Positions 15,001 to 49,483 of a DNA stretch of 50,662 nucleotides are shown piece by piece; within the stretch, counting starts at the first letter, position 1, and each line of letters starts with the position of its first letter. Location of the stretch: NCBI GenBank assembly GCA_964437615.1, contig CAYTHL010000003.1, positions 1 to 50,662 of the forward strand. Direction: 5' to 3'. The DNA comes from an uncultured Lachnospiraceae bacterium (GTDB lineage: Bacteria > Bacillota > Clostridia > Christensenellales > UBA1242). Under the pieces are notes generated by a model. The model was not told where the DNA came from. It worked only from the letters and a program-made list of their open reading frames with translations, and did no database searches. Position numbers and translations under genes: made by a program.

Positions 15001-18000
15001 ATTTTGGGCATCGTACAAAGATAGGTTGTTAACAATATAGCTATACAAGTCGGCTGTGTTTTTAATTGTTACGCTGTTTTCACTAGTATCTGTAGCTGTG
15101 TAACACTCAAAACTATAACCTACCCTTTCTGGCTCAATCAATTCGGTTACATTATAGGTATAGTAATTAATTGTAGAGCCATAGACTAAATCTACATTTA
15201 CAACATAGGTTATAGGTTTCCAAATAGCATATAGTGTTAGAGCAGTAATAGAACTATCTGTCTCTTTTGCCTTTAAGTATTCTGCGTATAATTCATTATG
15301 ATTTTTTTCTAGGTAAACATTTTCTCCGTCTTGTGTTAAAGACCAGCCCTCAAAGGTATATGCATCTCTATAAAATTCTGGTAGAGAACTTTGTCCGTCA
15401 TCAAATGTATAGGTTTGGGTAATAGTGGTTTCGTTATTAGAAGATTTGCCACCGTTACCATTAAATGTTACATTGTATGCTACTTTTTCCCATTTTGCAT
15501 ACACAGTTATGTCATAATCTTTTACTTGTATATTATCACTATTGCCTACACTTTGGCCTTCTTTAACCTTTTTAGAAAGACCTGTGTCGTAAAACCAACC
15601 ACCAAACACATAACCATGACGGCTAGGCTCTGCCCACACTCCTATTGTGTCTAGATATTTGTAGGTATAGGTTTTTTCTCTGTTTTCTGGGTCGTCATCA
15701 TAGTAAGCAAGTGTAGACCCAGAGTCTTGCACATCGTTAAGATCTAATGATATAGAATATGTATTTCTAATATAATATAACTTTATAGTATTGTTGCCGT
15801 CTCCGTACAATCTTGCATCACTAACTAAATATTCTCCGCTAGAATATAGTGTATCGTCATTAAATTCAACCTTATATAATGTGTAGCCATATAAAGTTGT
15901 GTCGTTTGCTTTTTGTTTACTCTCTTCGGACAAATATACTTGGTTTACAAGATCGTCAGCATAGTATATAGTGCTTCCGTTATACCAAGTGGTGCCCTCA
16001 CCAAACGAATATTCTTCTAAAGATGCGTCTTCAGTAGTCGTGTTCTCTCTGTAAGCTATTACTTCAACATTTACCTTATTTGCTTGCCAAATTGCATACA
16101 GGGTTATATCATTGTCGTAATTGTAAGTTAGCCCGCTTGTGTTAGTAATTGTAGCCTCTCCGATGCTAGAGGTACTCCACCCAAGCAGATTATAACCACT
16201 ACGCACTATTGAAGGCATGTCTGTTTCGCTTAAAACGCTGCCATAGTACACTTGCTTGCTATAAATAGTTACTCCGTCTACACTATCGGTTTCTACCTCT
16301 TTAAATTCTGCTTTATTTACTGTGTTGGTGCTGTCGTTACTATTAAACGATAGCGTATAAGCGTTTCTTAAATAATATACAGCAAAGTATGATTTTGTAG
16401 TGTCTGTAGCACCGGCATGTGCTAAGGTGTTTGTACCGGTAAGTGTAGATTTTGTGGTGTCTAGGGTAAACCCTTTTACTGCGCTTAACGCCCCTTCTAC
16501 CAAGTTTAAGTCTACATCACTATTTGGAGCCGCATAGAAAGTTTTAGTATATTCACTATACTCGCTTATAGGAGTATTGTTTTCACCCAATTTTTGTTCG
16601 TAATAAACAATTATATAGGCGCGATCGGCAATAACATTCCATTTTGCGTATAAGGTCCTTTCTGCCCAGTCTGCATTCATTATTGTGCTTTCTTCTAACT
16701 TATTTGTGCAATTTTCATCTAAATACCAGCCGGCAAATTCCCAACAAACATCAAGACCATAATCTTTGTTTAGTTTGCCCTCGGTAGTAAAGCCCTCACT
16801 TTCTAGCACACTAAATATTGTTGCCCCAACCGAAATTTCTACATTTGTGTTAAGTATATTGTTAATACTTCCCAACTCGTCTGTGCTAGGTTTTGTTGTA
16901 GATTCTATAGCCGTATTTGCATCCAATTTAATATAGTAAGACCCTATGGTTTCTTGACCGTTATAAGATTTACGCATATAAAAGTCGCCACTGGTCATAT
17001 TAAACTGCTTGTAGACGGCGCTTGTTGCGTTTGTTGGACCTTCTACAGCCAAAACTCCGTCTATATAATTTTGGTTAAATGCATCGGCGGCAACAGATGT
17101 AATTTTGCTATTTTTGCCAAAGTTTATATATTCTAGGTTTTCAAATTTTTTAAAAGCCTCGTTGCCAATGCTAACAATATTTTCTGACAAGGTAACACTG
17201 GTTACTTTAGAATCGTCAAACAAGGCTAAGAAATCTGCATTTACAACGCCAGCGCCCGTTATATTTAGCTCTATTTCGTCTGCTATAGTGCCGTCTTCCC
17301 ATGTATTGCCGTCTTGGTAAAAGGTAAATATCGATTTATTGTAATTGTCAATTTTGCCGCCAATGCCGCCAATGCTGCCAAGAACATCTAGGTTTATATT
17401 GGTGCCATTAGCCACATTTACTATAGCAAGATTGTCAAAAGCACTTAGTGCGCCATCATCTAAGTTGGATATATTTGCAGCAACATTTACATATTTTAAA
17501 CTAGTAGAAAGAGCCTGAAATTTGTTCATAAAGTCTTTTGTTAAGGTTTCTTCGGCAAAATATATGTTTAAGGTGTCTATTTTGGATACTTTTTCTCCGT
17601 CAGCGTCGGTAGTATAAAAGTTGCTCTCGTCAATTTCTAGGTTGGAATAATTGTATACACTTAATGTTGACAAATTGGTTAAGCCAATTAGGGCAGAACC
17701 TTCGATAGTGATATCTCCAGCAGCGCTAATTTCTACATTTGTAACTGTGTCGCTATTTAGCCCAAGACTGTTAGAAACTTCGCCAGAGGCACCAGCTATA
17801 TTTATAGTGGTTAGGTTATCTGCTCCGCTAAGCGCATCTGACTTAAGAGTAAGTTTGCTAGCGTCTTCTACAACAAGAGTGGTTACACCCGAACCAGCAA
17901 AAGCCGTTGCACCAACACTTGTTACCGATGATGGAATTGTTAAATTTGACAAACTTTCGCAACCAGCAAAAACACTATCTCCTATGGTTACAAGATTAGA

Positions 18001-18417: not shown

Positions 18418-18647
18418 AATCCACCCTTTTAGATAGTTTTTGCCGTTAGATTTGCTATTATTTACCATCTGACATGCTAATTTTGTAGTTTTTAGCCGAA
18501 TTTAGGCACAGAATACCCAAAATGCGCGCGAAAAACCGCATATTTTGTAAGTGAGACTGTAAATTATTGTGTTTTTACGCTATTTTTTGAAAAATTTTGT
18601 TTCAAAAATATTAGTTAATTTGTGTTTTTTGCCTCACTTATGTTCAT

Positions 18648-23114: not shown

Positions 23115-24929
23115 TTATATCTTTTCAAATTGGCTGTTGTATAGGTTTGCATAGAAACCTTTTTTGGCAAGTAATTCTTCATGCTTGCCCTGTTCGATAA
23201 TATGCCCCTTAGTCATAACCAAAATCATGTCGGCATTGGTTATTGTGCTAAGTCTGTGTGCAACAATAAAGTTTGTGCGACCTTTCATTATGGCGTTAAA
23301 GGCCTCTTGAATGCGCATTTCGGTGCGAGTATCTATATTACTTGTGGCCTCGTCTAAAATTAGCATAGGTGGTTTTAATAGCATAATTCTAGCTATACAA
23401 ATTAGTTGTTTTTCGCCTTGGCTAAGGTTGCTTCCGCCTTCGCTAACAATGGTATCATATTGCTGCGGCATTTTTTGAATAAACTCGTCTATGCCTGCAA
23501 GTTTGGCAGCCTCTATAACCTCTTCTAGTGGAACATTTGGGTTGCCATATGCAATATTATCTCGAATACTGGCGTTAAATAGCCATGTTTCTTGTAATAC
23601 CATACCATACTTGCTGCGCAAACTATGCCTAGTTATTTCTCTTATATCACACCCAGAAACTTTTATTGTTCCACTAGTTACATCATAAAAGCGCATAAGA
23701 AGATTAATAAGAGTACTTTTGCCGCAGCCCGTTGGACCAACTATGGCTATTTTTTGACCGCTTTCTACATTTAAATTAAGGTTTTCTATAAGTTTAACCT
23801 TAGGAATATAACTAAAATAAACATTTTGTAATTTTACAGTGCCGTCGCAGTCTATTAAGTCTGGGTTATCTACATCACTAATTTCATCAGGTTCGTCAAA
23901 AACTACAAACACTCTGGCTGCAGCCGCAAACGCCGATTGAATATCGCTAATATTTTCGCTAATTTCACTAAAAGGTTTGCCAAAGTTATTTGCGTAAGTT
24001 AAAAAACTAGAAATTGTGCCAATAGATATGCCTCCATGCAAGGCTTGCAAAGCTCCAAACAAACCAACTACACCATAAACTATGCCATTAATAAACCTAG
24101 TTGTAGGGTTAGATAATGCGCCGTAAAAACTTGATTTTTTGCAAATTTCGTAGTATTTGTTATTTACATTGCCAAAGTCTTTTATACTATCATTTTCGTG
24201 ATTAAAAGCCAAAACTACTTGCTGACCGCCAATATATTCTTCCAAATAACCCGAAAGTTCGCCCTGCGATGATACCTCGGCTTGATAGTATTTTTTTGCG
24301 CGTTTTACAAAATATAAAGTAAGAAGAACACTCATAGGTGTAAGAATTATAATTATTATAGCAAGATTAACATTTAGTAATAGCATAGAAATTATGGTTC
24401 CTACAATAGTCATTAAACCCGAAATAAAACTAGCTAGGCTCTCTAAAAAACCATCTGTCATAGTATCTATATCGTTTATCATGCGGCTAAGTAGGTCTCC
24501 GTGACTGGACGTGTCTATGTAACTTAGCGGCAAAGAGTTAAATTTTTTAAATAGCATGTCCCTAATTTTATAGGTGGCCTTGTAGTTGTAATTGTTTATG
24601 GTTATAGAGCCAAGCAAATTTGCCACTTGTGCAATAATTACAAATGCTATTAATATAAATACATACTTAGTTAGCATTCCAAAATCTACATTTCCAGCAG
24701 AGATTATGCAGTTTATGCACTTACCTAAATAAATAGGAATAAGTATTTCAAACACAGTGTTAATAAGGTCAAACAAAAAGGTTAAGTACAAATAAAATCG
24801 ATATTCTTTTGTGTACTTAAAAACTTTGGCAACAGTAGAAATTGCCGAGTGCCGCTTGTTTATTTTTTTTGCAAGATGGTCTTCGGCGGCTGCACGCATT
24901 TGATTAGATGACGCATTTGCCTTTGCCAC
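23115..24929 (-). CDS. ABC exporter permease/ATPase fusion, subunit B of a heterodimeric multidrug-type exporter (canonical NBD)
   Basis: Six-TM domain followed by Walker A GPTGCGKST, signature LSQGEKQ, Walker B MLILDEATS and H-loop VAHRLSTI. GTG start at 24929 with AAGGAG 9 nt upstream, 4 nt after the stop of the upstream partner. Confidence 0.85.
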   Translation of the reverse strand: MAKANASSNQMRAAAEDHLAKKINKRHSAISTVAKVFKYTKEYRFYLYLTFLFDLINTVFEILIPIYLGKCINCIISAGNVDFGMLTKYVFILIAFVIIAQVANLLGSITINNYNYKATYKIRDMLFKKFNSLPLSYIDTSSHGDLLSRMINDIDTMTDGFLESLASFISGLMTIVGTIISMLLLNVNLAIIIIILTPMSVLLTLYFVKRAKKYYQAEVSSQGELSGYLEEYIGGQQVVLAFNHENDSIKDFGNVNNKYYEICKKSSFYGALSNPTTRFINGIVYGVVGLFGALQALHGGISIGTISSFLTYANNFGKPFSEISENISDIQSAFAAAARVFVVFDEPDEISDVDNPDLIDCDGTVKLQNVYFSYIPKVKLIENLNLNVESGQKIAIVGPTGCGKSTLINLLMRFYDVTSGTIKVSGCDIREITRHSLRSKYGMVLQETWLFNASIRDNIAYGNPNVPLEEVIEAAKLAGIDEFIQKMPQQYDTIVSEGGSNLSQGEKQLICIARIMLLKPPMLILDEATSNIDTRTEMRIQEAFNAIMKGRTNFIVAHRLSTITNADMILVMTKGHIIEQGKHEELLAKKGFYANLYNSQFEKI

Positions 24930-24932
24930 GTG

Positions 24933-26696
24933 TTAATTCTCCTTTTTATTTTGTGAATAATGTATTTCTTGATAAACGCTGCACCTATCCAGCAACTCTT
25001 TATGTGTGCCAATATCTACAATATTGCCGGCGTCAACAACAATAATTTTGTCGGCGTCCTTAATAGAGTTTGTGCGCTGAGTGACTATAAAGGTGGTGGT
25101 GTTTTTCATAAACTGCTTTATAGACTTTCTTAGTTTGGCGTCAGTGGCAAAGTCTAGCGCACTAGAACTGTCGTCCATAATAAGTATAGACGGGTTGTCC
25201 ACAAGGGCTCTTGCAATGGTTAACCTCTGTTTTTGACCGCCAGAAAAGTTTGTGCCGCCACGATTTACCTTGTGTTTCAAAAAGTCTGGGTATTCTTTAA
25301 CAAAATCGTAACTTTGGCTTATTTTTAAGGCTTTTATCATGTCTTCTTGGGTAGCCTCTTGATTGCGCCATTTTAAATTGCTCTCTATTGTGCCATCAAA
25401 AAGAGTAGGGTTCTGCGGCACTATGCTGACAATTCGCCTAAGGTCTTCAACCCTATAATTTTTGACATTTTGATCTCCAACCAAAACCTCGCCCTCGGTG
25501 GCATCATAAAACCTAGGTATAAGGTTGGTTATGCTGCTTTTTCCACTGCCTGTTCCGCCAATTATGCCAACCATTTCGCCCGGATTTATAGTTATGGTAA
25601 GACCACTTACGGCATTTTTGATATTGTTGTAGCTAAATGACACATTTTTGTATTCCACTTTGCCCAAATTTATGTTGGTGCGGTCAATTTCAATAGGTGT
25701 TTCGGGGTCGGTAATGCTGTTTTGCAAACAGAAAATATCATTTATACGGTTGCTAGAAGTGCCCATACGCGTGTATATGGTTATCATTCTGGCAAGTGAC
25801 ACAAGAGAACTTGCTATCTGCGAAAAATAGTTGATAAAGGATATTAATTTACCTTGCTCCATGCCGCCAATATTAATTTCTATGCCGCCAAAATACAAAA
25901 TTGCCACAATTGCAAAGTTGGTTATAGTGTATATCATAGGAACAAGTGCCGCACCCCATGTGCCAAGTTTTAATTGTACATCTATAAGTTCGTAATTTGC
26001 ATTTTGAAATCTTTCGGCTTCGTAATTTTGTTTGTTAAAAGCTCTAACAACTCTTACCCCTGTCAAGTTTTCGCGAGTGATGTTGCTAGTTTTGTCTAGT
26101 TTTTGCTTACTTTCGGTAAGTAGCGGTGAAATTTTTGCGCGTACCCATAATACAACAGCAATAAGTAGCGGTGCAACTACAATAAATATAAGGCTAAGTT
26201 TTAAATTTATACTCAGCGCCATTACAAGCGAGCCAATCAATATAAATGGAATTCTAACAGCTGTTCTTAGTAAACTGCCAGTACCGCTTTTAATGTGGTA
26301 AACATCATGCACAGTGCGGTTTAAAAGTTCGGTTGTTGTAAAGGTATCTAATTCGGCATGGCTTAGGCTGTTTATATGAGTGTAAATGGCATTTCGCATC
26401 TCTTTGCCCATACCCTCTATTGCGTTGGCAGAAAATTTTTGACCAATTATTGCGCAGACAATGCCAACAACATTAAGTGCAAGTATAAGCAGTGCCATTT
26501 GCCAAATGTAAGTTGTGTCATTATTTTTTATACCTATATCTATAATATTGCCCATAAGATACGGAACAAAAACTTCGGTGGCGGCCTCTATCCCTTTAAA
26601 CACCGGAGCACCTATCGCAAATAACTTATAATTTGCCAAATAGGTTATTGGCTTAAAAATTTTAGGTTTTTTAGGCTGTTTTTGCGATTTTTTCAT
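24933..26696 (-). CDS. ABC exporter permease/ATPase fusion, subunit A (degenerate-site partner)
   Basis: Walker A GGTGSGKSS, signature FSGGQKQR, Walker B ILIMDDSSS (D instead of the catalytic E) and VTQRT in place of the H-loop. This is the classic asymmetric heterodimer arrangement. I place the start at ATG 26696 (MKKSQKQPKK). The track's TTG at 26732 coincides with a -35 hexamer. Confidence 0.8.
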   Translation of the reverse strand: MKKSQKQPKKPKIFKPITYLANYKLFAIGAPVFKGIEAATEVFVPYLMGNIIDIGIKNNDTTYIWQMALLILALNVVGIVCAIIGQKFSANAIEGMGKEMRNAIYTHINSLSHAELDTFTTTELLNRTVHDVYHIKSGTGSLLRTAVRIPFILIGSLVMALSINLKLSLIFIVVAPLLIAVVLWVRAKISPLLTESKQKLDKTSNITRENLTGVRVVRAFNKQNYEAERFQNANYELIDVQLKLGTWGAALVPMIYTITNFAIVAILYFGGIEINIGGMEQGKLISFINYFSQIASSLVSLARMITIYTRMGTSSNRINDIFCLQNSITDPETPIEIDRTNINLGKVEYKNVSFSYNNIKNAVSGLTITINPGEMVGIIGGTGSGKSSITNLIPRFYDATEGEVLVGDQNVKNYRVEDLRRIVSIVPQNPTLFDGTIESNLKWRNQEATQEDMIKALKISQSYDFVKEYPDFLKHKVNRGGTNFSGGQKQRLTIARALVDNPSILIMDDSSSALDFATDAKLRKSIKQFMKNTTTFIVTQRTNSIKDADKIIVVDAGNIVDIGTHKELLDRCSVYQEIHYSQNKKEN

Positions 26697-26703
26697 ATCG
26701 TCT

Positions 26704-26732
26704 ATTATATATTTTGTAAAAATAGTTGTCAA
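26704..26732 (-). promoter_or_regulatory. Consensus sigma-70 promoter (TTGACA-17-TATAAT) abutting the ABC operon start codon
   Basis: The minus strand reads TTGACA (26732-26727), a 17-nt spacer actatttttacaaaata, TATAAT (26709-26704), then agacgat, then ATG (26696). No Shine-Dalgarno sequence lies between them. Confidence 0.55.
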
Positions 26733-37652: not shown

Positions 37653-39295
37653 TTACAGTAGCGGGGCAAAAACACGCACAAGGCTGCATATAAAACGCTG
37701 AAATGGGTTTTGCCTGCAGTCGGCAGGGGATATGTACTTGCACACGCTTAACGTCTTGGCAAAATCGGCCTCAATGTCTACAACTGCCGAAGTTTTGTAC
37801 ATCCAAATACCGTTTTCAAAGTGGTGAACAAAGCTGCGATAATCCAAATTAATTGTGCCAACTATTGCAATTTTGTCATCTGCCACAATACCCTTTGCGT
37901 GGATAAATCCCGGCAGATATTCAAAAATTTGCACGCCACGTTTAATTAGCCTTGGATAATAACTGCGGCTAATTAACTGAACAACCTTTTTATCTGGCCT
38001 ATACGGAGTAATTATCTTTACTTCTACGCCGCGTTGTGCCGCACTCTCTAGGGCGCTAGCAATCTCGTTGTCTATAATTAGGTACGGTGAAGTTATGTGC
38101 ACGTAGTTTTGTGCCTGATTTATTATATTTAAAAAAGCCGTTTTTGCCACCGCTGTTGGGTATATTGGGCTTGGTCCGTCGCTAAATGGTACAACAAATC
38201 CGTTGTTTACGCAATTTTCGGCGGAAGCAACCACAGGAGCGGTTAAAGCTTTTATGTTTTTAGTTTTTTGGACTCTTTCTACTAATGCTTGTGGGCAATT
38301 GTCTGCTATGCTATTTTCGAAGTCCAAATTTAAATATGCCGAAAAATCGGAAATTGGGGCAAGGCTGTTAAATTCGTAGTCGGACAAAAACAAATAAGTT
38401 AATTCTTTTACGGCATCGCCAGTTATTCTAATGCCGCTATCTTTCCAATGCCCAAATCTGTTAATTTTGTTAATATACTCGTCGGCAATATTTACTCCGC
38501 CAGTGTAACCAATTTCGCCGTCAACAATTGTCATTTTTCGGTGGCTTCTATTGTTAAATTCGCTGCTGGCAGTGCCCCTTAAAATGGCAAAAGGCACAGC
38601 TTTAATGCCGCGTTTGCGCAAAGTTTTAAAATACAAACTTGGCAGAGTGGTCATGCAGCCAATGTCGTCATAAACAACCCTAACTTCTACGCCTTGACCT
38701 ACTTTTTGTTCTAAGATTTTTAAAATTGTGTTCCAAAATTCGCCTTTTTGGATAATAAATATTCAATAAAAATAAACTTTTTGGCTTTTTGCAGGTCTTC
38801 TACCATGCTTTTAAACATGTCTTCGCCGCTGCTAAAATAAGTAGTTGTGCAGTTTGTGTACACATGCGTTCCTGTGCTTGCCACCAAAAAAGAGGCTTGA
38901 CCCGCCGCCAAACTATCTGCAGAAAGAGCATCAAAGGCTGCATTATTGTCATATTTTATTACTTGCTTAGCAATCTGTCTAAGCCGCTTACTTTGTCTGC
39001 GAGATAGCTTGCGTGAATAAAAAATAAAATATAGCATAAATCCGGCAATCGGCAAAACCAAAATAACCAGCAGCCACGGCGCTTTGTAATCGGGGTTGTC
39101 GTCACTATTAATAACCCGCAAAACGCACCAAATTTGAGTAAGTGCAACCAGAATATAAAAGTATGGCACATAGACGCACAGTGCCATAACACCCACCACA
39201 ATAGCTAGCGTTTCGGCAAGTGCCAAAAGTATAGCCAGTGAGTATCTTAGCGGAATATATTTTAGTTTTTTTGGTGCAGATGACTTTTGTTTCAT
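37653..39295 (-). pseudogene. cls: Cardiolipin synthase interrupted by a single -1 frameshift (or a homopolymer sequencing error)
   Basis: The N-terminal ORF (38720-39295) ends ..FIFIEYLLSKKANFGTQF*. Re-reading one base at the T3 run (plus-strand aaa, 38757-38759) gives ..FIFIEYFIIQKGEFWNTILKILEQKVGQGVEVRVVYDDIGCMTTLPSLYF.., which joins seamlessly to ORF 37653-38654. Both HKD motifs (HRKMTIVDGE, IHAKGIVADD) are intact. Confidence 0.8.
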
Positions 39296-39751: not shown

Positions 39752-39874
39752 TTATCTAGCGCAAGAAGAACCGCAATCAGATTCTTTGCTGCTGCGATGA
39801 GTGTCACATGCAGATGCTTTGCCGCTCTTACTGCCGCAGCACTTAGACGATTTGCAATTTTTGTCTTTCTTCAT
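39752..39874 (-). CDS. 40-aa Cys/Ser/Lys-rich peptide (MKKDKNCKSSKCCGSKSGKASACDTHRSSKESDCGSSCAR), function unknown
   Basis: Hand-translated; it falls below the ORF-track cut-off. AAGGAGG lies 5 nt upstream of ATG 39874. Terminator hairpins sit both upstream (39990-40015) and downstream (39691-39722). Six Cys, one His, ten Ser and eight Lys, with no hydrophobic core. Confidence 0.6.
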   Translation of the reverse strand: MKKDKNCKSSKCCGSKSGKASACDTHRSSKESDCGSSCAR

Positions 39875-39989: not shown

Positions 39990-40015
39990 AAAAAAGGTGC
40001 GGGGTAGCCACACCT
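39990..40015 (-). terminator. Rho-independent terminator after the second ABC-like gene
   Basis: The minus strand reads AGGTGTGG-ctacc-CCGCACCT followed by TTTTTTG. The stem is fully paired only in the minus-strand RNA (a U-G wobble, which would be a C-A mismatch on the + strand). It lies 11 nt after the stop at 40026. Confidence 0.65.
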
Positions 40016-40025
40016 AATGTCTGGG

Positions 40026-41693
40026 TTATTTGCTGTTTTGTTTATTGTGCAGAGTTCCCTTTTCGGCAAAGCAAATGTTTTTGCAGATAGGTTTTAGCCA
40101 GTCGGCGTAGCTAAACAAAATTAGGGTATGCTCTTTGCCAATCTTTTTAAATATATCTAAAAGTTCTTTCTTTTGGTTGTCAGAAAGTGTTTTAGGCGTT
40201 TCGTAAATCATAATAACTTCGGAGTTTGTGCAAATTGCACGGGCTATACCCAGCAAATATTTGTCGTAATCGGTAAATAATTCTGGCTCTTTAACAAGAT
40301 TACTTTTGTATGCAAGCTGTGTTTTTACAATTTTATCGTGCAATCCAAGGTCTTTGCAGACTTTGTACACTTGTTGCTTACTGGCGCCGCTAGTTAACAT
40401 GTTGTTCATAATTGTGTCGCTGTAAAAATATGGTTTGCTTGTCGTGTAGGTTATATTGTGCCTAAAGGTTTCTTTGTCAAAGTCAAAAATGTTAATATTA
40501 TCTAGGGTTATCGTTCCGGTTGTTGGCCTAACTGCACGGCGAAGCATGTAAAATATGGCTCTTTTGCCGCTACCGTGCGCCCCGTAAATTAGGTTGCAGC
40601 TTTTAGGATTAATTTTTAAATTAAATTTATCTATGTGGCTGGCAATTTCTTCATCTTTGCCCAAGTAGCTTACATTTGTAAATACAAGGCTGCCGCTTAC
40701 ATCGTCCACCAGATTGTTGCCGTACTCCATAATGTCGTCTTGGTCCATGTCTAGTATATTTTTTATACGCAAGGTAGAAACATATAGGTCTTGCACATAA
40801 TCCATGATGGTATACGAGCCAACCATTTGGGTTATTGCCTTAGTTAAGTATTTGCTAAGCACTAAGTAAAGAGTTAGTGTAAAAATATTACTTTTGGTTA
40901 AAATTACCATATATATGCAGCAAAGGACAATAATTGCTTGGTAGATAAAAGGAATCCAATTGTATGTAAAGGAGTAATATTTTCCGCATCTAGTTTTGTA
41001 GTCGCAACTCTTTTCCATATTTGCCATAAACTTTTGCTTAATTTGACTATTTAGGTTTAAGTCTTTTGTAAGTTCGCGATTGTTTATGCTATCACTAATG
41101 TCTTCTAGCGCGTAATCTTTATACTCTTGCATTTTGTCGTTGTAAAGGGCAATCCGCTTGTTTGCAAAGTTTGCCAAAAAGAATATTATTACGCACATTA
41201 CTATAATTACGCTGCCAATATAAAAGTTGTAGGTAAGCAAAATTACAATACTAACAACGGCTTGAACAAAATAACTTGCATAAAGGCTAGAATACTCCGG
41301 AAAGTCTGCAAAAATGCCAATGTTGTTGTAAATTATGTTTAAAATCTTTTCCTTGCCCGTTTTGGCAAAACTTTGGGTAGACGCATGATTAAGTTTATCG
41401 TAAATTTTGCCGTGCGCAGTAAGATATGTTTTGCGCATGTTTACATAATATAGCCTGTCTTTAATAAAATACAAAATTCTTTGAACAACTATAATGCCAA
41501 GGGTAACAAGCAGCCAAAAGATAGTTCCGTTAAGGTCTAGCACAGTAATGCTTGTTATTGCCTTTGCACTAGGAATAGCCGCATACAAACTAAGCAAATA
41601 GATGCCAACATAGCACAAAAAGTGAAACAACCAAACAAACATGTTAGGCCTTGCAAGTTTAATATACATTTTTATGGAAGAAAATATATTCAT
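40026..41693 (-). CDS. ABC-exporter-like permease/NBD fusion with degenerate ATPase motifs (second subunit)
   Basis: 555 aa. N-terminal six-helix type-I exporter-like region plus a C-terminal NBD-like domain. Walker A GAHGSGKRA. No Q-loop Gln (TTSKPYFYSDTI). DYDKYLLGIARA stands in place of LSGGQ..IARA. IMIYETP stands in place of ILLDEAT. FSYAD stands in place of the H-loop. The ATG abuts the TAG of the upstream gene. Confidence 0.75.
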   Translation of the reverse strand: MNIFSSIKMYIKLARPNMFVWLFHFLCYVGIYLLSLYAAIPSAKAITSITVLDLNGTIFWLLVTLGIIVVQRILYFIKDRLYYVNMRKTYLTAHGKIYDKLNHASTQSFAKTGKEKILNIIYNNIGIFADFPEYSSLYASYFVQAVVSIVILLTYNFYIGSVIIVMCVIIFFLANFANKRIALYNDKMQEYKDYALEDISDSINNRELTKDLNLNSQIKQKFMANMEKSCDYKTRCGKYYSFTYNWIPFIYQAIIVLCCIYMVILTKSNIFTLTLYLVLSKYLTKAITQMVGSYTIMDYVQDLYVSTLRIKNILDMDQDDIMEYGNNLVDDVSGSLVFTNVSYLGKDEEIASHIDKFNLKINPKSCNLIYGAHGSGKRAIFYMLRRAVRPTTGTITLDNINIFDFDKETFRHNITYTTSKPYFYSDTIMNNMLTSGASKQQVYKVCKDLGLHDKIVKTQLAYKSNLVKEPELFTDYDKYLLGIARAICTNSEVIMIYETPKTLSDNQKKELLDIFKKIGKEHTLILFSYADWLKPICKNICFAEKGTLHNKQNSK

Positions 41694-43367
41694 CTATTTT
41701 ACCCCCACATTATTAATTTTGCCGGCTTGCACAATAAAGCAGTCGTCGCAGACTTTTTTGGCTACATCGCTTGCGCTAAATATTAGCACGGCACGTTCCT
41801 GCTTAATTTTTTTGATTGCGTCAAGCACACCTTGCTGCTCTTTAGCGGTGAGGGATATAGGGAACTCGTATATACACAAAAATTCGGCACGGCTAAGCAT
41901 CGCCCGGGCTAGACCTATCATAAATAGTAAGTATGAGCTAAAACTCTCTTTTTCTCGCCCCATGTTTGTAGAGTAGCCGTGCGGAAGAGATTTTATAAGC
42001 TCGTCTATGCCAAGTTCTTTGCAAACCCTGCTAATCTCTTTACGGCTAGAACAAGCATATCTTAAGTTTTCTAAAACTGTTTCGCTATAAAAATAGGGTT
42101 TGCTGGTAGCGTAAGAAAAGTGATGCTTGTAGGTGTCTTTGTCAAAGTCAAAAATGTTTATGCCGTCCATGGTTATTGTACCAGTTGTTGGAGTTATTAC
42201 CCGCCTAAGAAGATAAAATATGGCGCGCTTGCCGCACTTTTTAACGCCTCTAAACAGTACGGCTGTTCTTGGTTTAATTGCAAAGTTTACATTAAAAATG
42301 TTGCCGCACCCAGCCTCTTTGCCCTCTAAATCTAGATAATTTATGTTGTTAAAGGTTAGGTTGCCAGAAATTTTATTGGTAGTGTTGTTGCTGTAGGCAA
42401 TAACATCGGCGTCTGCCATGTTTAGTATAGTTTCTATACGCTGCACATTTACGCTGCAAGACTGTAAATCGTTAATAAGTCCGTAGCCCGACACAGCTTG
42501 GTCTATGGCGCTTATAAAATAAGGTGCAAGCACCAAGTATGCGGTTACCGAAACCAGCCCATTTTTTGTAATTACAGCTAGCCAAATAGTTAGGGCGGTT
42601 ATAATTGTGTAAAGAACTATGTATGTCCAATATTTGCGCGTGCAGTTAAGTAGTCCTCGTTTAGAATAGTTGTTTACAGTAACATTAACCTTATCTAGGT
42701 AAACTTGTCTATTTTGTTCTTCCAAATTTTGTTCGGTTGTGTAATCTCTGCCGTCTATATAGTTAGAAAGCGTTTCGCTAACGGCATCGCGCGCGGCATA
42801 AATTTTTTGCGTCTTAATTTGTGTAAGATTATTTATAAACACATACCAAAAGTACATAAGCACTACTATTGCGGCAAGTATTAGCGCCATATATATGTTG
42901 TAATAAGCCACAATACATATAATTATTAGGCTTTGCACTAGGTAGCTTAGTTTGTAACTAAGGTAGTCGGCAAAGTTTTGCACAGTGTTAATGCTGCTAG
43001 AAAAAATATTGAGCATCTTTTCCATGCTTTGACCGCTTAAACCTTGGCTTGTCACTTTTTCCAGCTTGTCATAAAGCCTTTCGCTAAGGTTCATGGTTAT
43101 GTATTTGCTGCTTTTGTAAAAATACTTATAGTTTAGGTGCCAAGTATAGAAATAAACCAAGTATCCAATTAAGGTAAACACTAGCCACAAAATAGCCAAA
43201 TTGTAGTTGCTGCTAGTTATACTAGTGACAACTTTTGCCTCGGCAAGAGTAAAAAATATGCTAACAATACATGGCAAGGTAGAAGTAAGCAGCATCAAAA
43301 AGAATAGCCACCAGTTTGGTTTAGCTACTCTTGCCCAGCGTTTAATTTTTTTAAAAGTACTTTCCAT
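41694..43367 (-). CDS. ABC-exporter-like permease/NBD fusion with degenerate ATPase motifs (first subunit)
   Basis: 557 aa. Walker A-like GVKKCGKRA. ATSKPYFYSETV in place of the Q-loop. ESFSSYLLFMIGLARAM in place of the LSGGQ signature. FLCIYEFP in place of Walker B. FSASD in place of the H-loop. Overall collinear with the canonical ABC exporters at 23115-26696. Confidence 0.75.
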   Translation of the reverse strand: MESTFKKIKRWARVAKPNWWLFFLMLLTSTLPCIVSIFFTLAEAKVVTSITSSNYNLAILWLVFTLIGYLVYFYTWHLNYKYFYKSSKYITMNLSERLYDKLEKVTSQGLSGQSMEKMLNIFSSSINTVQNFADYLSYKLSYLVQSLIIICIVAYYNIYMALILAAIVVLMYFWYVFINNLTQIKTQKIYAARDAVSETLSNYIDGRDYTTEQNLEEQNRQVYLDKVNVTVNNYSKRGLLNCTRKYWTYIVLYTIITALTIWLAVITKNGLVSVTAYLVLAPYFISAIDQAVSGYGLINDLQSCSVNVQRIETILNMADADVIAYSNNTTNKISGNLTFNNINYLDLEGKEAGCGNIFNVNFAIKPRTAVLFRGVKKCGKRAIFYLLRRVITPTTGTITMDGINIFDFDKDTYKHHFSYATSKPYFYSETVLENLRYACSSRKEISRVCKELGIDELIKSLPHGYSTNMGREKESFSSYLLFMIGLARAMLSRAEFLCIYEFPISLTAKEQQGVLDAIKKIKQERAVLIFSASDVAKKVCDDCFIVQAGKINNVGVK

Positions 43368-43481
43368 TAGTCAAAACAAAGTTTAATATAAAAAATATCT
43401 ATTTGTCAAATATTTAAAAGCAAACTTATAAATATACATTTTGATTAATTAACTAAATACTCAAATAATTGCTACTAATTG

Positions 43482-43687: not shown

Positions 43688-46600
43688 ATGAAAAAATTTT
43701 TATCATATTTATTTACTTTTGTGTTTTTGTTTATAATAAGCACAACAATTACCATAAAGTTAAATTCTACCAATCAGGATGCAACAAATCAACTTGTTAG
43801 CACCAATGCGGGCGTGCAAAAAAGCTTGCTTGGCGGCATTATGGATAGCCTAGACGCCAACCCTAAGCAAGAAATAGTTGGCAATATAAACCTAGTTGTT
43901 GACGGCAAGCCAATGGCTATAAGTTTATCTGCGCAAGTAGACTTTACTACGCTAACCAACCCAGATGTTAGTGGCTTTGTTAGTGTGCAGTACGATCAAA
44001 TGCAATTATCGGCGTTTGTGGCATATGTAGATAGCACCCTTTTTGTTAGTTGCAACAACATAAAAATAAAGGCGACAATATCTAGCATAAAAGATATTGT
44101 AGAAATATTTAAAAACTTAATAGACCAAAATTCTGAGGAAACACTAGAGGACACCAAAGAAGACGAGACTATTGCAGATGTTGAAGAAAGCAGCAATACA
44201 GACACTTCTACCGAAGACGCAGAAATTTTGCAATCTGGTGACCAGACGGCAGAGCCAGAGCAACAAGAAAATAGCGCAGAAGAAGACAACGCCGAAAGTT
44301 CAAGTTTTTTAGACGGCATTAGTTTGGACGATATAATAGCGGCACTGACTAATCCGCAAAAGCAAATAGTAGATAATCAGATGTTCTTTAACTTAAATAT
44401 AGACGGCATCTGCCAAGCTATGCTTGTAACCGACCTAAACTATAATATTCAAACCTTGCAAATTAATTCGTTTGAGCTTTTGCCACAACTAGAACTAACA
44501 GCAAGTGTAAATATGGTTGCAGATGAAAATTTAATTATAGAGCAGCCCGAAACTGACGACAGTTATCTAGATATAGAGGCCGTTAAAACCGGCATAGAGC
44601 AGCTATTTGCCGAAGACTATATAACGGCAAACATTTGGGCGGCGGTTTATAAAGACAGCATTTTGCAGGAGCAACTAGATAGTTTTGCGCGCCTAAATTT
44701 TGTTACGGATACCTATTATCTAAGCGCCAATTTATCCGGCACGCTAAACTGCTATGCAGCCCTAGGATACAAAAATAATACCATTTATGCAATTTTAAAT
44801 GATATGTATGTAAAGGCCTCTGCCGACACAGTAGACAATATATATGGATTAGTTGCCGAAAATATTAGCGACTTAGAATTAAGCCTAGATTTGTCTGACC
44901 AAGTTGACGCAATTCTTTCTTGGCTTGCAGATAACTACAACAGCGTGCTAAATAGTGCAGTTGTGTCCTCTAGCCAAATAATGTTTACATCAGATTTGTC
45001 TGGCATATTGGGTCAAACTGGGGTTGTTACCTTTACCCTTGGGCTAAGAAACGGCGCCATTTATAGTCTAAAACTTAGCGGCGTAAGCGTCATGGGTTAT
45101 ACAGCAAACTTGTCTGTTAGCCTTGGAACGCCTAGCAGCCTAGATATAAATATTAATGACAGCCTATACTATGACGCTGCCAAGGTGCTACAAGTTGTCG
45201 ACCTTGTGCAAAACACGCAGTATACGGCATCGGCAGACCTAACAATTGGCTTTGACGAAACTGAGCTAAACTTAACATTGTCTGCGCTTGCAGATATAAA
45301 AAACGGCAATTACAAACTAACTATTGGTGGGCTTGTTAGTAAAAAAGATATAGTTGTAACCTATGTTGGCGGGGCTGCTTATGTAAGCATTGATGACGTT
45401 TGCATATCTGCTGGCAGCGCAACCATCAGCGAAATAATAGATATAATAGCTAACCAATTTGGGCTAGATACAGACATTTCTGCAAAACTGCAAAGTTACA
45501 AAGAAATATTTGCGGACATGAGCCTGCAAGACTTGTTAGATTTATTTAACATAAGTGTTGGCGGCAGCGGGATAACCCTTGCAACCGACCTATCTAGCAT
45601 ACTGGAAAAGACTTTTGCCGTAGACATTTGGGCAGACTACATAGTTACCGACCAATTTACTGGCATAAGCGCGGTAATTAATAACCTTTCTATTGGCGGC
45701 ATAACAATTAGTGGCAGCCTAAAAATTGCCAGCGGAGCAGAAAATATTTCTGCGCCACAAAATGTAACCCTAAACCTAGATAGCCTAGATGTAACTAATG
45801 TTGTAAATAGCATAATCAACCTTGCCCAAAGCAAAACCTTTAGTGGTGCAATTAGCGTTAGCTATGATGGACTAGAAATTTCTGGCAACTATGTTTTGGA
45901 TATTTCTAGCGGCATAGCAATATCTGCCAACTTAAATGTCTGTGGGCTAGATGCTAGCATATATTTTGATGGCAACACCATTTATGCTAATGTTGTTGGC
46001 TTAAAAGTTTATGTGCCAATTAACCAAATTGAAGACTTGGTAGACTACTTTAACTACCTATCCCAAAAGTTTAGCACAACCACTAGCAACGAGGAAGTTC
46101 AAACGGCTGCAGAAACTTCCACCGAAGAAAATACGGGGCTAACCCTAGAGTGGTTAGTTGACCAAATTAAAACTAGCCAAAACCTAGATGTTATTAACCT
46201 TATTTGCACAATTTTAGCAGACGATAGCACAGAAATAACTCTATCTGGCAGCAGCATTATGGCAAAACTGCTTGGATTAGACCTAAGTGTAAATATTGGC
46301 GGCAACTCCACCAACCCAACTTGCAGCGCAACTGTTGGCTACGAAAAATTATCTGCTAGCCTAAACCTTTCTGCCGGTGGAGAATTATCTACAATTAACG
46401 CAGCAGAATATGCAAGCTATACCGAGGTTATAGATATTATTAATGCCGTCATTGCGCTTATAGACGGGCAAAAGATTAGCCTAACCGCAACTGCAACCAT
46501 TTACGAGGGCGAAGATGTGCATTACTATGCCACTTGCGAGGCGCAAGTAGAGTTTACTAGCCAAAACTTTGCCTTTTATGCAGATATATCTGTTATAGAC

Positions 46601-49483
46601 TACACCTCTACCGATAAGTCGCCTATGGACTTTATGCTGGCCTATCAAAATGGCAAGTGGTATGCAGACTACAACAATCTAAAACTAAAAATAGACGCAA
46701 GTGACCTAGCCGAAATTGTAGTTATGCTACTGGGCGTTTTAGGCATAGATGTTCCTGCGGCGCTAACAGGCGTACTGCAAAACGCAACTCTTGGCGTGAT
46801 AGATGTAGATACAAGTGTATTCTCAGCCTTAGTGCCAAACATTAACCTAGATAGCCCACTAACCATGCTAAAATATATCTATGGGCTAGATTTGCAAAAC
46901 GGCACATTAACAGTAAAAATAGACAACGCCCTTATAACCAATAACGCTGCCGGCAAGGATATGGTTATTAGTGTAGTAACCACCAAAGATAGCAGCGGCA
47001 ATGTTACCCTTAGCGGGCTAAATTTAAGCAATGTCTACACCGGCGTTACCGAAACCGAAAGGTTTAATTTAAATATTTCGGTTGCCCAATTTAGCGCAGT
47101 AACAGCGCCACCTAGCGGCAACTATATAGACCTTTCTGGTTGCAACAACCTAATAAAGGCTGTTATAAACACTGCTGAACTAAATTATTTCCACATTACC
47201 GGCAATTTAGATGTTACTATTCTTGGCATCAACCTTGGCGAAGTTCCAGTAGACATAAAAATTAAACTAGACGAAAACCGTCTACCAGAAATTTTAATTA
47301 GCTTGCCAGATATTCCGGTTGTAGTTGGTGTAAATAAGGATACCGAACTTACATCAACTAATAGTAGGGCGGCTTATATTTACTACTATCAAGGTTATGT
47401 ATACTTTTACAGAGTAGATAGCGGCTTGTATTGGTTCTCAAGCCGTACAATAGAGCAGACCACAAAGGTTTACTATACCGAAGTATTTGATAACATTTTG
47501 TATTATTTGCAGTGGGTAACCGGATTTTCAGACAGTATTATGGAGGCCATAGAAGAGAGCCTATCTATAGAGCACGAAACCGATTTGGGTAATGTAATAA
47601 CATCGTTTACCGCAAGCGATAGCAAAACAGACTTTAAAATTGTGCTTAACATGTACGAAATCACCGGCGACTCTAACATGGGCGACATGACCATTAGCTT
47701 AACCGTTGTTAACAACGAAAGCACAAACAATAAAGACTATATAGGCTACGCAACATTCAACCTAGAAATGCCATTTACTAGCGCAATAGTTATGCAACTA
47801 GACTGTGACGACCTTGCACTTGAAGACATAGGCAAAGAACTCGACTTTAGCAGCTTTTATGACTTTATAAATAGCTATAGCTATGCCGAAAACGAGGAAT
47901 GGACCGGCACTAATGGCAGTTGGTCACTTTCTAGCACTAAACTTTATACAATCACCTTTGATATCAACTTAGATGGTTACACTGGCAGCGCACCCGCAGA
48001 TATAGAGGGCACTTACGATAGCCCAATAAGTTTGCCAACTTATAGCACATTTAATTACTATTACAATAATAATCAAAACTTAGATGTATACACCTTTGCG
48101 GGTTGGTACACAACTGCAAAATGCGAAGACGGCACTGAGTTTACCTCATCAACAATGCCTCGCGGCGGTGCAACCTTGTATGCAAAGTGGGTGCTAACGG
48201 AAAGTTACCGCACAGCAACATTTGTAGACTACTACGGCAACACCATAGATACTCAGTTTAGTTTAATTGGCACAGCGCTTAAAAGTGTAGAAGTGGCAGA
48301 AACACTTACAATTTACTCTAACTCTAACGCTGTAAAATCTATTTTGCAATACAACGGCTACTTTGTAGACGCCAGCGGCAATAGGGTAACCGAAGTTACC
48401 GAAACTACAACACTCTATCCAAGTTATAGCACTACTACAACATACAATCAATATACCCTATATATAAACACCGGCGTAGCTAATCAAGACTTGTCTACCG
48501 TGGCCTACGAGCAGCATGATGTTACTAGCCTCTTGCCACAACTAGACGCGCAAATAGACATATTTGATAGCCTAGCAGGCACAACCACAACTTACAGTTT
48601 TGGTGGCTGGTACACAGATAGCAACTTTACAACCCAGTTTGACGGAACCATGCCAAGCGCAAACACCTCAGTTTACGCAAAATGGACGGTTGAAAGAGTA
48701 ATTTATCAAAGGCAGCTAAGCGTTTACGATAACGAGCAACTAGTTTATCAAGATTTGTATGCCGTAGAAGACCAAATTAGTCTGCCAAGTAGTGTAATTG
48801 TAAATAATAATACCCAATGGTACCTAGATGCCAACTACTCATCAGCTTACAATTATACCGGCATAATGCCAGATAACGACCTAACTTTATATGTCCGCAA
48901 TTTGTATACTTTAACCTACACTTATTATGTAAAGAGCGGCAGCACTTATGTGCAAACCACTGCAAGTGTAAATATTTATCAAGGTCAAACAATTTCTTTG
49001 CCTAGCCAGGCAGACGACATTATAGAGTTTGGCTCGGGCGATAGCTATTACAGAATGGTTTACACATTTGGCGGTTGGTTTACAGACAGCACCTACACAA
49101 GCGAGTATACTAGCGCCACTATGCCAAACGCAAACACCACCGTTTACAGCAAATTCACCGCCCAAAAACAATACAGAATAACCTTTGACACAACTTGGGT
49201 TAAACCAACTATGTGGGTATCAGACGGCAAAATAGTGCAAAAAGGCACGGTAGAGTCTGTTTATGTAAATGAGGGAGAAACATTTAACGCTGATGCGGCA
49301 AATTATACCACTACTGCACAATATAAATACATGGGTGTAACATATTCCTTTAATGTTGTTGCATGGAATACAACAGGCTGCTCAACCGTTACTACTGGCG
49401 CAACAAATACTAAATCTTACAGTCAATTAAGCCCATTTACAGTTAACAAAAGTATAACATTATATGCAATTTGGGGAAAATAG
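43688..49483 (+). CDS. Large secreted/surface protein: signal/anchor, acidic low-complexity linker, about five copies of an uncharacterised 200-245-aa module, and C-terminal Listeria-Bacteroides (InlB B-repeat) modules
   Basis: ATG 43688 (MKKFLSYLFTFVFLFIISTT) with AAGGA 7 nt upstream; the track's TTG at 43664 is less likely. C-terminal modules include YTFAGWYTTAKCEDG..ATLYAKW, YSFGGWYTDSNFTTQ..TSVYAKW and YTFGGWFTDSTYTSE..TTVYSKF. Terminator at 49494-49521. Confidence 0.85.
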   Translation: MKKFLSYLFTFVFLFIISTTITIKLNSTNQDATNQLVSTNAGVQKSLLGGIMDSLDANPKQEIVGNINLVVDGKPMAISLSAQVDFTTLTNPDVSGFVSVQYDQMQLSAFVAYVDSTLFVSCNNIKIKATISSIKDIVEIFKNLIDQNSEETLEDTKEDETIADVEESSNTDTSTEDAEILQSGDQTAEPEQQENSAEEDNAESSSFLDGISLDDIIAALTNPQKQIVDNQMFFNLNIDGICQAMLVTDLNYNIQTLQINSFELLPQLELTASVNMVADENLIIEQPETDDSYLDIEAVKTGIEQLFAEDYITANIWAAVYKDSILQEQLDSFARLNFVTDTYYLSANLSGTLNCYAALGYKNNTIYAILNDMYVKASADTVDNIYGLVAENISDLELSLDLSDQVDAILSWLADNYNSVLNSAVVSSSQIMFTSDLSGILGQTGVVTFTLGLRNGAIYSLKLSGVSVMGYTANLSVSLGTPSSLDININDSLYYDAAKVLQVVDLVQNTQYTASADLTIGFDETELNLTLSALADIKNGNYKLTIGGLVSKKDIVVTYVGGAAYVSIDDVCISAGSATISEIIDIIANQFGLDTDISAKLQSYKEIFADMSLQDLLDLFNISVGGSGITLATDLSSILEKTFAVDIWADYIVTDQFTGISAVINNLSIGGITISGSLKIASGAENISAPQNVTLNLDSLDVTNVVNSIINLAQSKTFSGAISVSYDGLEISGNYVLDISSGIAISANLNVCGLDASIYFDGNTIYANVVGLKVYVPINQIEDLVDYFNYLSQKFSTTTSNEEVQTAAETSTEENTGLTLEWLVDQIKTSQNLDVINLICTILADDSTEITLSGSSIMAKLLGLDLSVNIGGNSTNPTCSATVGYEKLSASLNLSAGGELSTINAAEYASYTEVIDIINAVIALIDGQKISLTATATIYEGEDVHYYATCEAQVEFTSQNFAFYADISVIDYTSTDKSPMDFMLAYQNGKWYADYNNLKLKIDASDLAEIVVMLLGVLGIDVPAALTGVLQNATLGVIDVDTSVFSALVPNINLDSPLTMLKYIYGLDLQNGTLTVKIDNALITNNAAGKDMVISVVTTKDSSGNVTLSGLNLSNVYTGVTETERFNLNISVAQFSAVTAPPSGNYIDLSGCNNLIKAVINTAELNYFHITGNLDVTILGINLGEVPVDIKIKLDENRLPEILISLPDIPVVVGVNKDTELTSTNSRAAYIYYYQGYVYFYRVDSGLYWFSSRTIEQTTKVYYTEVFDNILYYLQWVTGFSDSIMEAIEESLSIEHETDLGNVITSFTASDSKTDFKIVLNMYEITGDSNMGDMTISLTVVNNESTNNKDYIGYATFNLEMPFTSAIVMQLDCDDLALEDIGKELDFSSFYDFINSYSYAENEEWTGTNGSWSLSSTKLYTITFDINLDGYTGSAPADIEGTYDSPISLPTYSTFNYYYNNNQNLDVYTFAGWYTTAKCEDGTEFTSSTMPRGGATLYAKWVLTESYRTATFVDYYGNTIDTQFSLIGTALKSVEVAETLTIYSNSNAVKSILQYNGYFVDASGNRVTEVTETTTLYPSYSTTTTYNQYTLYINTGVANQDLSTVAYEQHDVTSLLPQLDAQIDIFDSLAGTTTTYSFGGWYTDSNFTTQFDGTMPSANTSVYAKWTVERVIYQRQLSVYDNEQLVYQDLYAVEDQISLPSSVIVNNNTQWYLDANYSSAYNYTGIMPDNDLTLYVRNLYTLTYTYYVKSGSTYVQTTASVNIYQGQTISLPSQADDIIEFGSGDSYYRMVYTFGGWFTDSTYTSEYTSATMPNANTTVYSKFTAQKQYRITFDTTWVKPTMWVSDGKIVQKGTVESVYVNEGETFNADAANYTTTAQYKYMGVTYSFNVVAWNTTGCSTVTTGATNTKSYSQLSPFTVNKSITLYAIWGK

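Follow-up and report, generated by a model that had tools for sequence, protein, structure and literature searches.

What can a pair of ATP-binding cassette (ABC) exporter-like proteins do if neither has kept more than a few of the residues with which such proteins bind and hydrolyze Mg-ATP? The question is raised by two adjacent genes, here designated A and B, in a 50,662-nucleotide stretch of the genome of an uncultured Lachnospiraceae bacterium (GenBank assembly GCA_964437615.1, contig CAYTHL010000003.1), referred to below as the window. In textbooks, ABC exporters illustrate how ATP drives transport, and the exporters described as 'degenerate' all keep one working site. An earlier note on this DNA, made from the letters of the sequence, had proposed that the nucleotide-binding domains (NBDs) of A and B are both catalytically degenerate. 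The analyses described here place A and B in a conserved family in which the motifs of both ATP sites have been replaced. Judged from sequence, the most likely reading is that they constitute a membrane module that would be independent of ATP hydrolysis.

A coupled pair of half-transporter genes

Gene A (41694-43367, minus strand), the first of the pair, encodes a 557-residue half-transporter with six transmembrane (TM) helices and a pseudo-NBD. Gene B (40026-41693, minus strand) encodes a paralogous half-transporter of 555 residues and is translationally coupled to A. Both open reading frames (ORFs) are intact in the ORF listing of the window. The TAG stop codon of A immediately abuts the ATG of B, and a G-rich Shine-Dalgarno (SD)-like sequence, GGGGG, is located inside A, ~9 nt upstream of that ATG. 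The two proteins are 33% identical and have the same substitutions. A promoter-like site, TTGACA-18-TAAACT (43380-43409, minus strand), identified in a consensus scan by its match to the consensus alone, is present just 5′ of the A ATG. An obvious SD is not seen upstream of this ATG, and the leader of A may therefore be short or absent. Immediately 3′ of the B stop codon, inspection of the sequence and a scan identified a strong, terminator-like hairpin followed by a T-run (39995-40015, minus strand). With a promoter-like site before A and the hairpin and T-run after B, A and B appear to form their own bicistron. An Rfam scan of the window returned no match.

A and B are half-transporters with the domain layout of type IV ABC exporters, with A alone represented by a fold model. 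Six hydrophobic segments are predicted, followed by the NBD, in one polypeptide. The Pfam ABC_membrane and ABC_tran domains score above their gathering thresholds, but narrowly (29.4 and 33.1 bits in A, 41.4 and 44.5 bits in B), and in A they span residues 23-284 (PF00664) and 359-498 (PF00005), respectively. The AlphaFold2 model of A, based on a 64-sequence alignment, has a pLDDT of 89.2 and its NBD is modeled confidently. Searches with this model using Foldseek identified TM287/288, TmrAB and MsbA as the best matches in the PDB, with E values down to 9e-25, and all of the top 50 matches were type IV exporters. No curated family that covers A or B was found in Pfam or NCBIfam. The 25 best NCBIfam matches listed for each protein are all far under their equivalog cutoffs, the highest score being to CydD (129.8 bits versus a cutoff of 435), with MsbA at 108.7 versus 602, and the peptide-exporter families (PCAT/bacteriocin; TIGR01193, TIGR03796) at 87 bits versus cutoffs of 524-853. 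Neither a C39 peptidase domain nor an SbmA_BacA domain was found by Pfam in A or B.

Both nucleotide-binding domains are degenerate

The motifs were placed by HMMER residue alignments to ABCB1 and BSEP and by MAFFT motif tables, and the positions obtained agree. In A, on the minus strand as are all of the motifs listed here, Walker A reads GVKKCGKRA (42222-42248), with the GxxxxGK kept and the Ser/Thr replaced by Arg381. The Q-loop equivalent is T-S-K-P (42096-42107), in which Ser422 occupies the position of the canonical Gln, and FSSYL (41928-41942) is present in place of the LSGGQ signature. The Walker B equivalent, FLCIYEFP (41859-41882), has Tyr500 in place of Asp, retains Glu501 and has a family-specific Pro503, and in the H-loop equivalent, FSASD (41766-41780), the His is replaced by Ala532. 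The corresponding motifs in B are a Walker A, GAHGSGKRA (40557-40583), with Arg for Ser/Thr and the Lys kept; a T-S-K-P Q-loop equivalent (40431-40442) with Ser for Gln; FTDYD (40263-40277) as the signature equivalent; VIMIYETP (40194-40217) as the Walker B equivalent, with Tyr for Asp and the Glu kept; and FSYAD (40101-40115) as the H-loop equivalent, with Tyr for His. In place of the D-loop Asp, A has Thr and B has Ser, and the aromatic position of the A-loop is occupied by Asp in A and Gly in B. Neither protein therefore has the GK(S/T), Walker B Asp, LSGGQ and Q-, H-, D- and A-loop residues of a competent NBD, and neither could contribute a canonical Walker side or a canonical signature to a single consensus site. 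Both proteins do retain the Lys of Walker A and the catalytic Glu.

A control is available in the same window, where the genes at 24933-26732 and 23115-24929 (minus strand) encode an ordinary heterodimeric exporter in which, as in the classical pattern, a single site is degenerate. D-D in Walker B, TQ for AH, and FSGGQ are found in one subunit; the other has canonical Walker motifs and LSQGE.

The testable claims of the earlier note about these two genes all hold, with small corrections. The abutting TAG-ATG pair with products of 557 and 555 residues and a transmembrane domain (TMD)-NBD layout is borne out by the ORFs, Pfam and the fold of A. The GKRA of Walker A and the losses of the Walker B Asp and switch His in both proteins were recovered with HMMER and MAFFT, and the motif table substantiates the in-window control pair with one degenerate site. 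The profile alignments revealed no canonical motifs at shifted positions. Two statements have been modified. The absence of the Q-loop Gln is correct but is now more precisely a replacement by Ser, with the following Lys also found in ordinary relatives; and the replacement of LSGGQ is correct, as is its assignment to FSSYL in A, but the DYDKYL proposed for B was placed with a register shift of 2. The A-loop and D-loop losses, and the retention of the catalytic Glu and Walker A Lys, are additional to that description. Lys423 was considered as a new Mg substitute and dropped; the Gln aligns with Ser422, and Lys423 is present in 18 of 56 ordinary relatives.

The replacements define a conserved family

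When A and B were each searched against 5.8 billion proteins, both searches identified a compact set of metagenomic relatives with 28-68% identity. Orthologs of A are 45-68% identical, and orthologs of B, 41-65% identical, are encoded on the same contigs as the A orthologs. The next matches after the family are generic ABC exporters, with E values of ~1e-19 or weaker, preceded in the B search by intermediates with canonical motifs (P0102 and P0103; E values of 1e-34 and 1e-29). None of the sources of the protein collection searched has a name for any member of the family. In a profile search of 1.84 billion representatives followed by motif extraction, this motif pattern was recovered in no fewer than 60 clusters formed at 50% identity. 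As documented by a scan of one genome per GTDB species, the family is present in ~29 metagenome-assembled genomes (MAGs), including one circular 1.2-Mb genome. These MAGs are labeled Clostridia, Christensenellales-type, Bacilli, 'Tenericutes' or Erysipelotrichaceae and originate from rabbit, ruminant, mouse and human gut; the family is confined to uncultured gut Bacillota.

A neighbor-joining tree was constructed from 161 representatives, 105 from the family and 56 sister or outgroup sequences, and in this tree the sequences with the GK-R/Tyr-Glu-x-Pro pattern form one monophyletic clade of 105 representatives. Arg381 is present in 93 of the 105 family sequences and in none of the 56 others, Tyr500 in 95 and 1, and Pro503 in 102 and 0, respectively. 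For the retained residues, the corresponding numbers are 98 and 55 for Lys380, and 92 and 39 for Glu501. The common residues of the family do not include Gln at the Q position or aromatic residues at the A-loop position. The D-loop Asp is replaced by Thr or Ser in 86 of the 105 sequences, and the position of the second Gly of the signature is Tyr or Phe in 59. There are further family-specific conserved residues, namely P17, E116, F132, E198, Y277, L278, L284, F426, G485 and F530, and the mean column identity is 0.57 in the NBD versus 0.47 in the TMD.

A and B are under purifying selection. Relative to the orthologous pair at locus L058, the ratio of nonsynonymous to synonymous substitution (dN/dS) is ~0.10-0.15 for A and B, and ~0.15-0.16 for the NBDs alone, values that are rough as dS is saturated. 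Given this low dN/dS and the conservation of the family-specific replacements, the loss of the motifs is not decay. The suggestion made earlier, that the substitutions shared by A and B reflect a conserved family, is thus upheld by a 105-member clade in which, compared with the 56 relatives, the substitutions are conserved rather than random.

Duplication and loss of the P-loop within the family

Most genomes, including the circular 1.2-Mb genome, have a single copy of the gene that is equally distant from A and B, and the ancestral protein was therefore presumably a homodimer with two identical pseudo-sites. Tandem A and B genes are found only in the lineage of the window (the window, L001, L002, L057/58 and at least 8 contigs with both types). 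At every A/B junction examined, the genes abut or overlap and a G-rich SD is located in front. A and B arose by an old tandem duplication from an ancestral single gene and have remained tightly coupled in translation. It is likely that the family as a whole consists of vertically inherited, previously unnamed 'pseudo-ABC' half-transporters of uncultured gut Bacillota. On one MAG contig of 72,936 nt (P0013/P0079 cluster; P0258, P0261, P0262), the A-type and B-type products are truncated or split (312 aa; 213 + 342 aa), which could be the result of local pseudogenization or an assembly error.

The loss of motifs is more advanced in several lineages inside the family (P0148, P0156, P0158, P0160, P0167 and others), from which the Tyr-Glu pair and the entire P-loop have disappeared. 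In these Walker A-less members, which also include P0168, sequences such as FDNETSKIAF are present and the C-termini are shortened, with the 'LRR..PT.GTIT.D.INI.DF' segment and the same locus retained. Their genes are intact. P0148 (L062, positions 1745-3397) is encoded in a locus with, in order, a divergently transcribed gene for a giant surface protein (see below), the family gene, YchF and UppP, which is the chromosomal position of the window pair. P0148 is therefore a positional ortholog that gave up nucleotide binding altogether.

Comparison with known exporters

Exporters with one degenerate site, exemplified by TM287/288, TmrAB, BmrCD, PatAB and MsRv1273c/72c (PMC7756269), resemble A and B in being encoded by adjacent genes for half-transporters with six TM helices and an NBD. 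They provide the best structural matches of A (Foldseek E ~1e-24), and they also deviate from the consensus motifs. In these exporters, one subunit has lost the Walker B Glu and the H-loop and the other the signature, and one site stays canonical. In contrast, A and B are each without both sides, and also without the Mg ligands and the A-loop, so that no canonical site is left. A review of this subject deals only with transporters in which one of the two sites is degenerate (PMC7756269), and no published exporter with both sites degenerate was found in the literature searched, the coverage of which is incomplete. Pdr5, CFTR and SUR tolerate a site with nearly all motifs altered (Pdr5 NBS1; PMC7756269), or are re-used as a channel or regulator. 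Unlike A and B, they have retained the Mg ligands and one site that is competent for hydrolysis, and they are eukaryotic, full-length and members of other subfamilies. ABC exporter-fold proteins with one pseudo-site have been described already; what appears to be new here is a family with two, both conserved.

There is precedent for an ABC-exporter-type TM dimer driven by ion gradients in SbmA/BacA (SLiPT) and in LmrA without its NBD. SbmA/BacA is proton-driven, with an exporter-type TMD that works without ATP (PMC8442886), and the NBD-less LmrA (LmrA-MD) acts as a secondary-active translocator (PMC6155054). SbmA/BacA has, however, no NBD, no coupling helices and a glutamate ladder, whereas A and B have a full conserved NBD and intracellular loops, and analysis of conservation across the family did not reveal a conserved acidic ladder in their membrane core.

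The closest relatives outside the family form a sister clade (for example P0102/P0103, P0163-P0166 and P0172), found in similar metagenomes, that scores ~230-330 bits to the family profile. The sister clade shares an 'INIYDF..Y.HN' segment with the family and, often, the Lys that follows the Q-loop Gln. Unlike the family, it keeps GK[ST] and the Gln, together with an SGGQ-like signature, either Asp-Glu or Asp-Asp, and either His or Lys, which is the canonical or an ordinary one-degenerate-site pattern. The nearest outgroup is likewise made up of ordinary half-transporters, in which GK[ST], the Gln, Asp-Glu or Asp-Asp, and a signature similar to SGGQ are present.

A membrane module that may work without ATP hydrolysis

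A and B are likely to pair as a heterodimer, forming a membrane complex that has the fold of type IV ABC exporters. The residues replaced include those that hold Mg2+ (the Walker A Ser/Thr, Q-loop Gln and Walker B Asp) and those that handle ATP, namely the A-loop Tyr that stacks on the adenine, LSGGQ and the D-loop Asp that contribute to the dimer clamp, and the switch His involved in hydrolysis. What has taken their place (Arg, Ser, Tyr-Glu-Phe-Pro and aromatic residues) is conserved and specific to the family. As both the Walker half and the signature half have been lost from each polypeptide, a canonical hydrolysis site seems impossible in any dimer, and we strongly infer that a canonical ATP site would be unattainable in an A/B heterodimer, a homodimer or a dimer with some other half-transporter. 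The complex would not run the normal ATP switch cycle, and the family proteins probably work without it. The ATP-independent module envisaged in the earlier note gains support, at the level of sequence, from the genomes with a single copy, in which a homodimer would have two dead sites, and from the positional orthologs without a P-loop.

In such a complex, the TMDs would still have a function in the membrane, independent of ATP hydrolysis. They could translocate an envelope-related substrate, by a facilitated or ion-gradient-coupled route, or scramble it, or could retain a partner in the membrane. Conservation of the TMD, most notably of TM6 (L-Y-L-x-L-x-P-Y-L), speaks for a membrane function that has been kept. 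The NBDs would persist as a structural module for dimerization and coupling. A putative Arg381-Glu501 pair and an aromatic cluster of Tyr500, Phe426 and Phe530 may fill the former Mg-ATP pocket, with the aromatic residues in its Mg/gamma-phosphate space, which would generate a self-stabilized pseudo-site. The P-loop Gly and Lys residues that are retained may have a regulatory role in which they bind, independently of Mg2+, a ligand that carries phosphate; such binding is not essential family-wide, as the P-loop is missing from some orthologs.

More tentatively, and with slightly less than an even chance of being right in this full form, the family would be the first natural full-length ABC exporter family with conserved pseudo-sites at both positions that works without ATP hydrolysis. 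An evolutionary series would then lead from ordinary relatives, through the GK-R/Tyr-Glu-x-Pro state, to P-loop loss. The proteins would be passive or ion-coupled translocators, scramblases or the dedicated membrane partner of the giant surface protein, and would in effect be a surviving intermediate that links primary ABC pumps with secondary transporters of the SbmA type. Several observations weigh against an ATP-independent module. All members of the family are known from MAGs or metagenomes. The Walker A Gly and Lys (93%) and the catalytic Glu (88%) are strongly conserved in the family, which shows that the old active site remains under selection and leaves room for unusual chemistry. The gene neighborhoods also differ between clades and look like housekeeping synteny, not an operon.

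Gene neighborhood and alternative explanations

The Clostridia-type loci have a block of genes that encode a giant Flg_new protein (divergently transcribed), dCMP deaminase, the family protein, UppP, YchF, c4 (an unknown gene), FtsH and CvpA. In the Bacilli-type loci the order is EF-P, the family gene, a CDF transporter, MurC, MraZ, RsmH, FtsL and PBP2B, and there are other contexts of family genes that are unrelated to these two syntenies. Clustering of the neighbors over the family loci did not identify a conserved operon partner. The envelope-related neighbors (UppP, dcw cluster) are suggestive only as a hint of function. The gene for a conserved 447-aa protein (cluster c24) immediately precedes the family gene, in the same orientation, in L009 and L010, and is located at a greater distance and in the opposite orientation in L026. 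The C-terminal motif of this protein, ..DGATIID..GGGRLAAA.., resembles a diadenylate-cyclase-like domain.

In the window, the giant surface protein (43688-49483, plus strand) has ~1930 residues, an N-terminal TM anchor and C-terminal Listeria-Bacteroides repeats (Pfam Flg_new). Its gene is a conserved neighbor in the Clostridia-type clade, divergent from the family gene in 12 distinct loci. Among the neighbors, the giant protein is the most specific lead on a partner, and we infer that it is possibly a functional partner of A and B. The giant proteins encoded in the window, L001-L015, L057 and L062 have ~1,900-2,400 residues and evolve rapidly (17-39% identity), yet have an N-terminal anchor that is almost invariant, and in these loci the gene is always divergent from the pseudo-ABC gene. 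The N-terminal 25 residues (MKKFLSYxLTFxxxFxIS..T) have a mean column identity of 0.71 versus 0.36 for the rest of the protein. A homolog search with the giant protein identified one distant relative, a profile search of the PDB identified nothing, and a two-sequence structure model had a pLDDT of 28.8. The window also contains an ORF of >6,100 codons (1-18501, minus strand) that runs off the window start, a second and much larger giant protein gene; being open-ended, it is missing from lists of ORFs. Elsewhere in the window, a cardiolipin synthase gene is split into ORFs of 191 and 333 aa (37653-39295, minus strand) with a frameshift near 38700-38790. The ortholog in L057 is intact (505 aa), and the window copy is either a pseudogene or the result of a sequencing error.

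The arrangement of the giant gene is consistent with an alternative in which A and B do not transport, but provide a membrane scaffold or receptor for the giant surface protein, for example by binding its unusually conserved N-terminal TM anchor so that the protein is positioned, retained or assembled. The divergent arrangement in the 12 loci is maintained even at family identities of ~25-35%, the first 25 residues are the most conserved stretch of the giant protein, and their motif is confined to genes that adjoin the family. A dCMP-deaminase gene is, however, present between the giant gene and the family gene in most loci, and no giant gene is located near the family in the Bacilli-type clade or in several Clostridia-type loci. 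Synteny extends over the region as a whole (UppP, YchF, FtsH, CvpA), so that the adjacency may reflect inheritance alone, and the structure model of the giant protein is unusable. We regard this alternative as unlikely.

It is also quite unlikely that A and B are still an ATP-driven exporter, using a non-canonical chemistry in which the P-loop Lys and Walker B Glu catalyze a metal-independent or low-rate ATPase reaction and Arg381 takes over the charge-neutralizing role of Mg2+. The conservation throughout the clade of G374, G379 and K380 (92-93%) and E501 (88%), an Arg381 that is nearly invariant at the Mg-ligand position, and an NBD that is the most conserved part of the protein would fit such an enzyme. 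But one and the same polypeptide has replacements of the A-loop aromatic residue, the Q-loop Gln, the Asp of Walker B, the signature, the D-loop Asp and the switch His, and in canonical exporters single mutations at several of these residues abolish ATPase activity. Furthermore, the Tyr-Glu pair and the entire P-loop are missing from positional orthologs whose genes are intact.

A 40-aa Cys-rich, Lys/Ser-rich ORF, MKKDKNCKSSKCCGSKSGKASACDTHRSSKESDCGSSCAR (39752-39874, minus strand), that looks like a real small gene is located 150 nt downstream of B. It is preceded, 5 nt upstream, by an AAGGAGG ribosome binding site, has its own terminator-like hairpin, and its product has no match in Pfam or NCBIfam. 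The position of this ORF, together with the weak, below-cutoff NCBIfam similarity of A and B to peptide-export ABC families, might indicate that the pair exports, or gives immunity to, the peptide as a bacteriocin-type cassette. A terminator is, however, present between B and the peptide ORF, there is no C39 peptidase domain, a maturase was not found, and the scores to peptide exporters are far under the cutoffs. The co-occurrence of the peptide and the pair that the earlier note had suggested examining is not supported, as a Cys-rich small ORF was found near the family in only one (L061) of 33 other loci, a second contig of the same organism, and the peptide is absent beside every other family member. 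This failure to co-occur largely refutes the cassette explanation, which is very improbable. Least probable of all is that A and B are decaying pseudogenes, or that their motifs were mis-aligned; despite Pfam scores barely above threshold and the split copies in one related MAG (312 aa; 213 + 342 aa), this is refuted by the conservation of intact, full-length ORFs with the same replacement residues in >100 representative clusters, a dN/dS of ~0.1-0.16, a confident structure model and the agreement of three independent alignments on the positions of the motifs.

Implications

Automated annotation would probably give the members of this family a generic ABC transporter label. The results draw attention to a conserved membrane protein, apparently a core one, in gut Bacillota about which little is known. 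If A, B and their relatives do work as a membrane module without ATP hydrolysis, then the exporter scaffold would be usable without the ATP switch, and the family would provide a natural series for the roles of NBDs beyond hydrolysis, in dimerization, coupling and ligand sensing. The evolutionary link proposed between ABC pumps and proton-driven SbmA-like transporters would then become directly testable.

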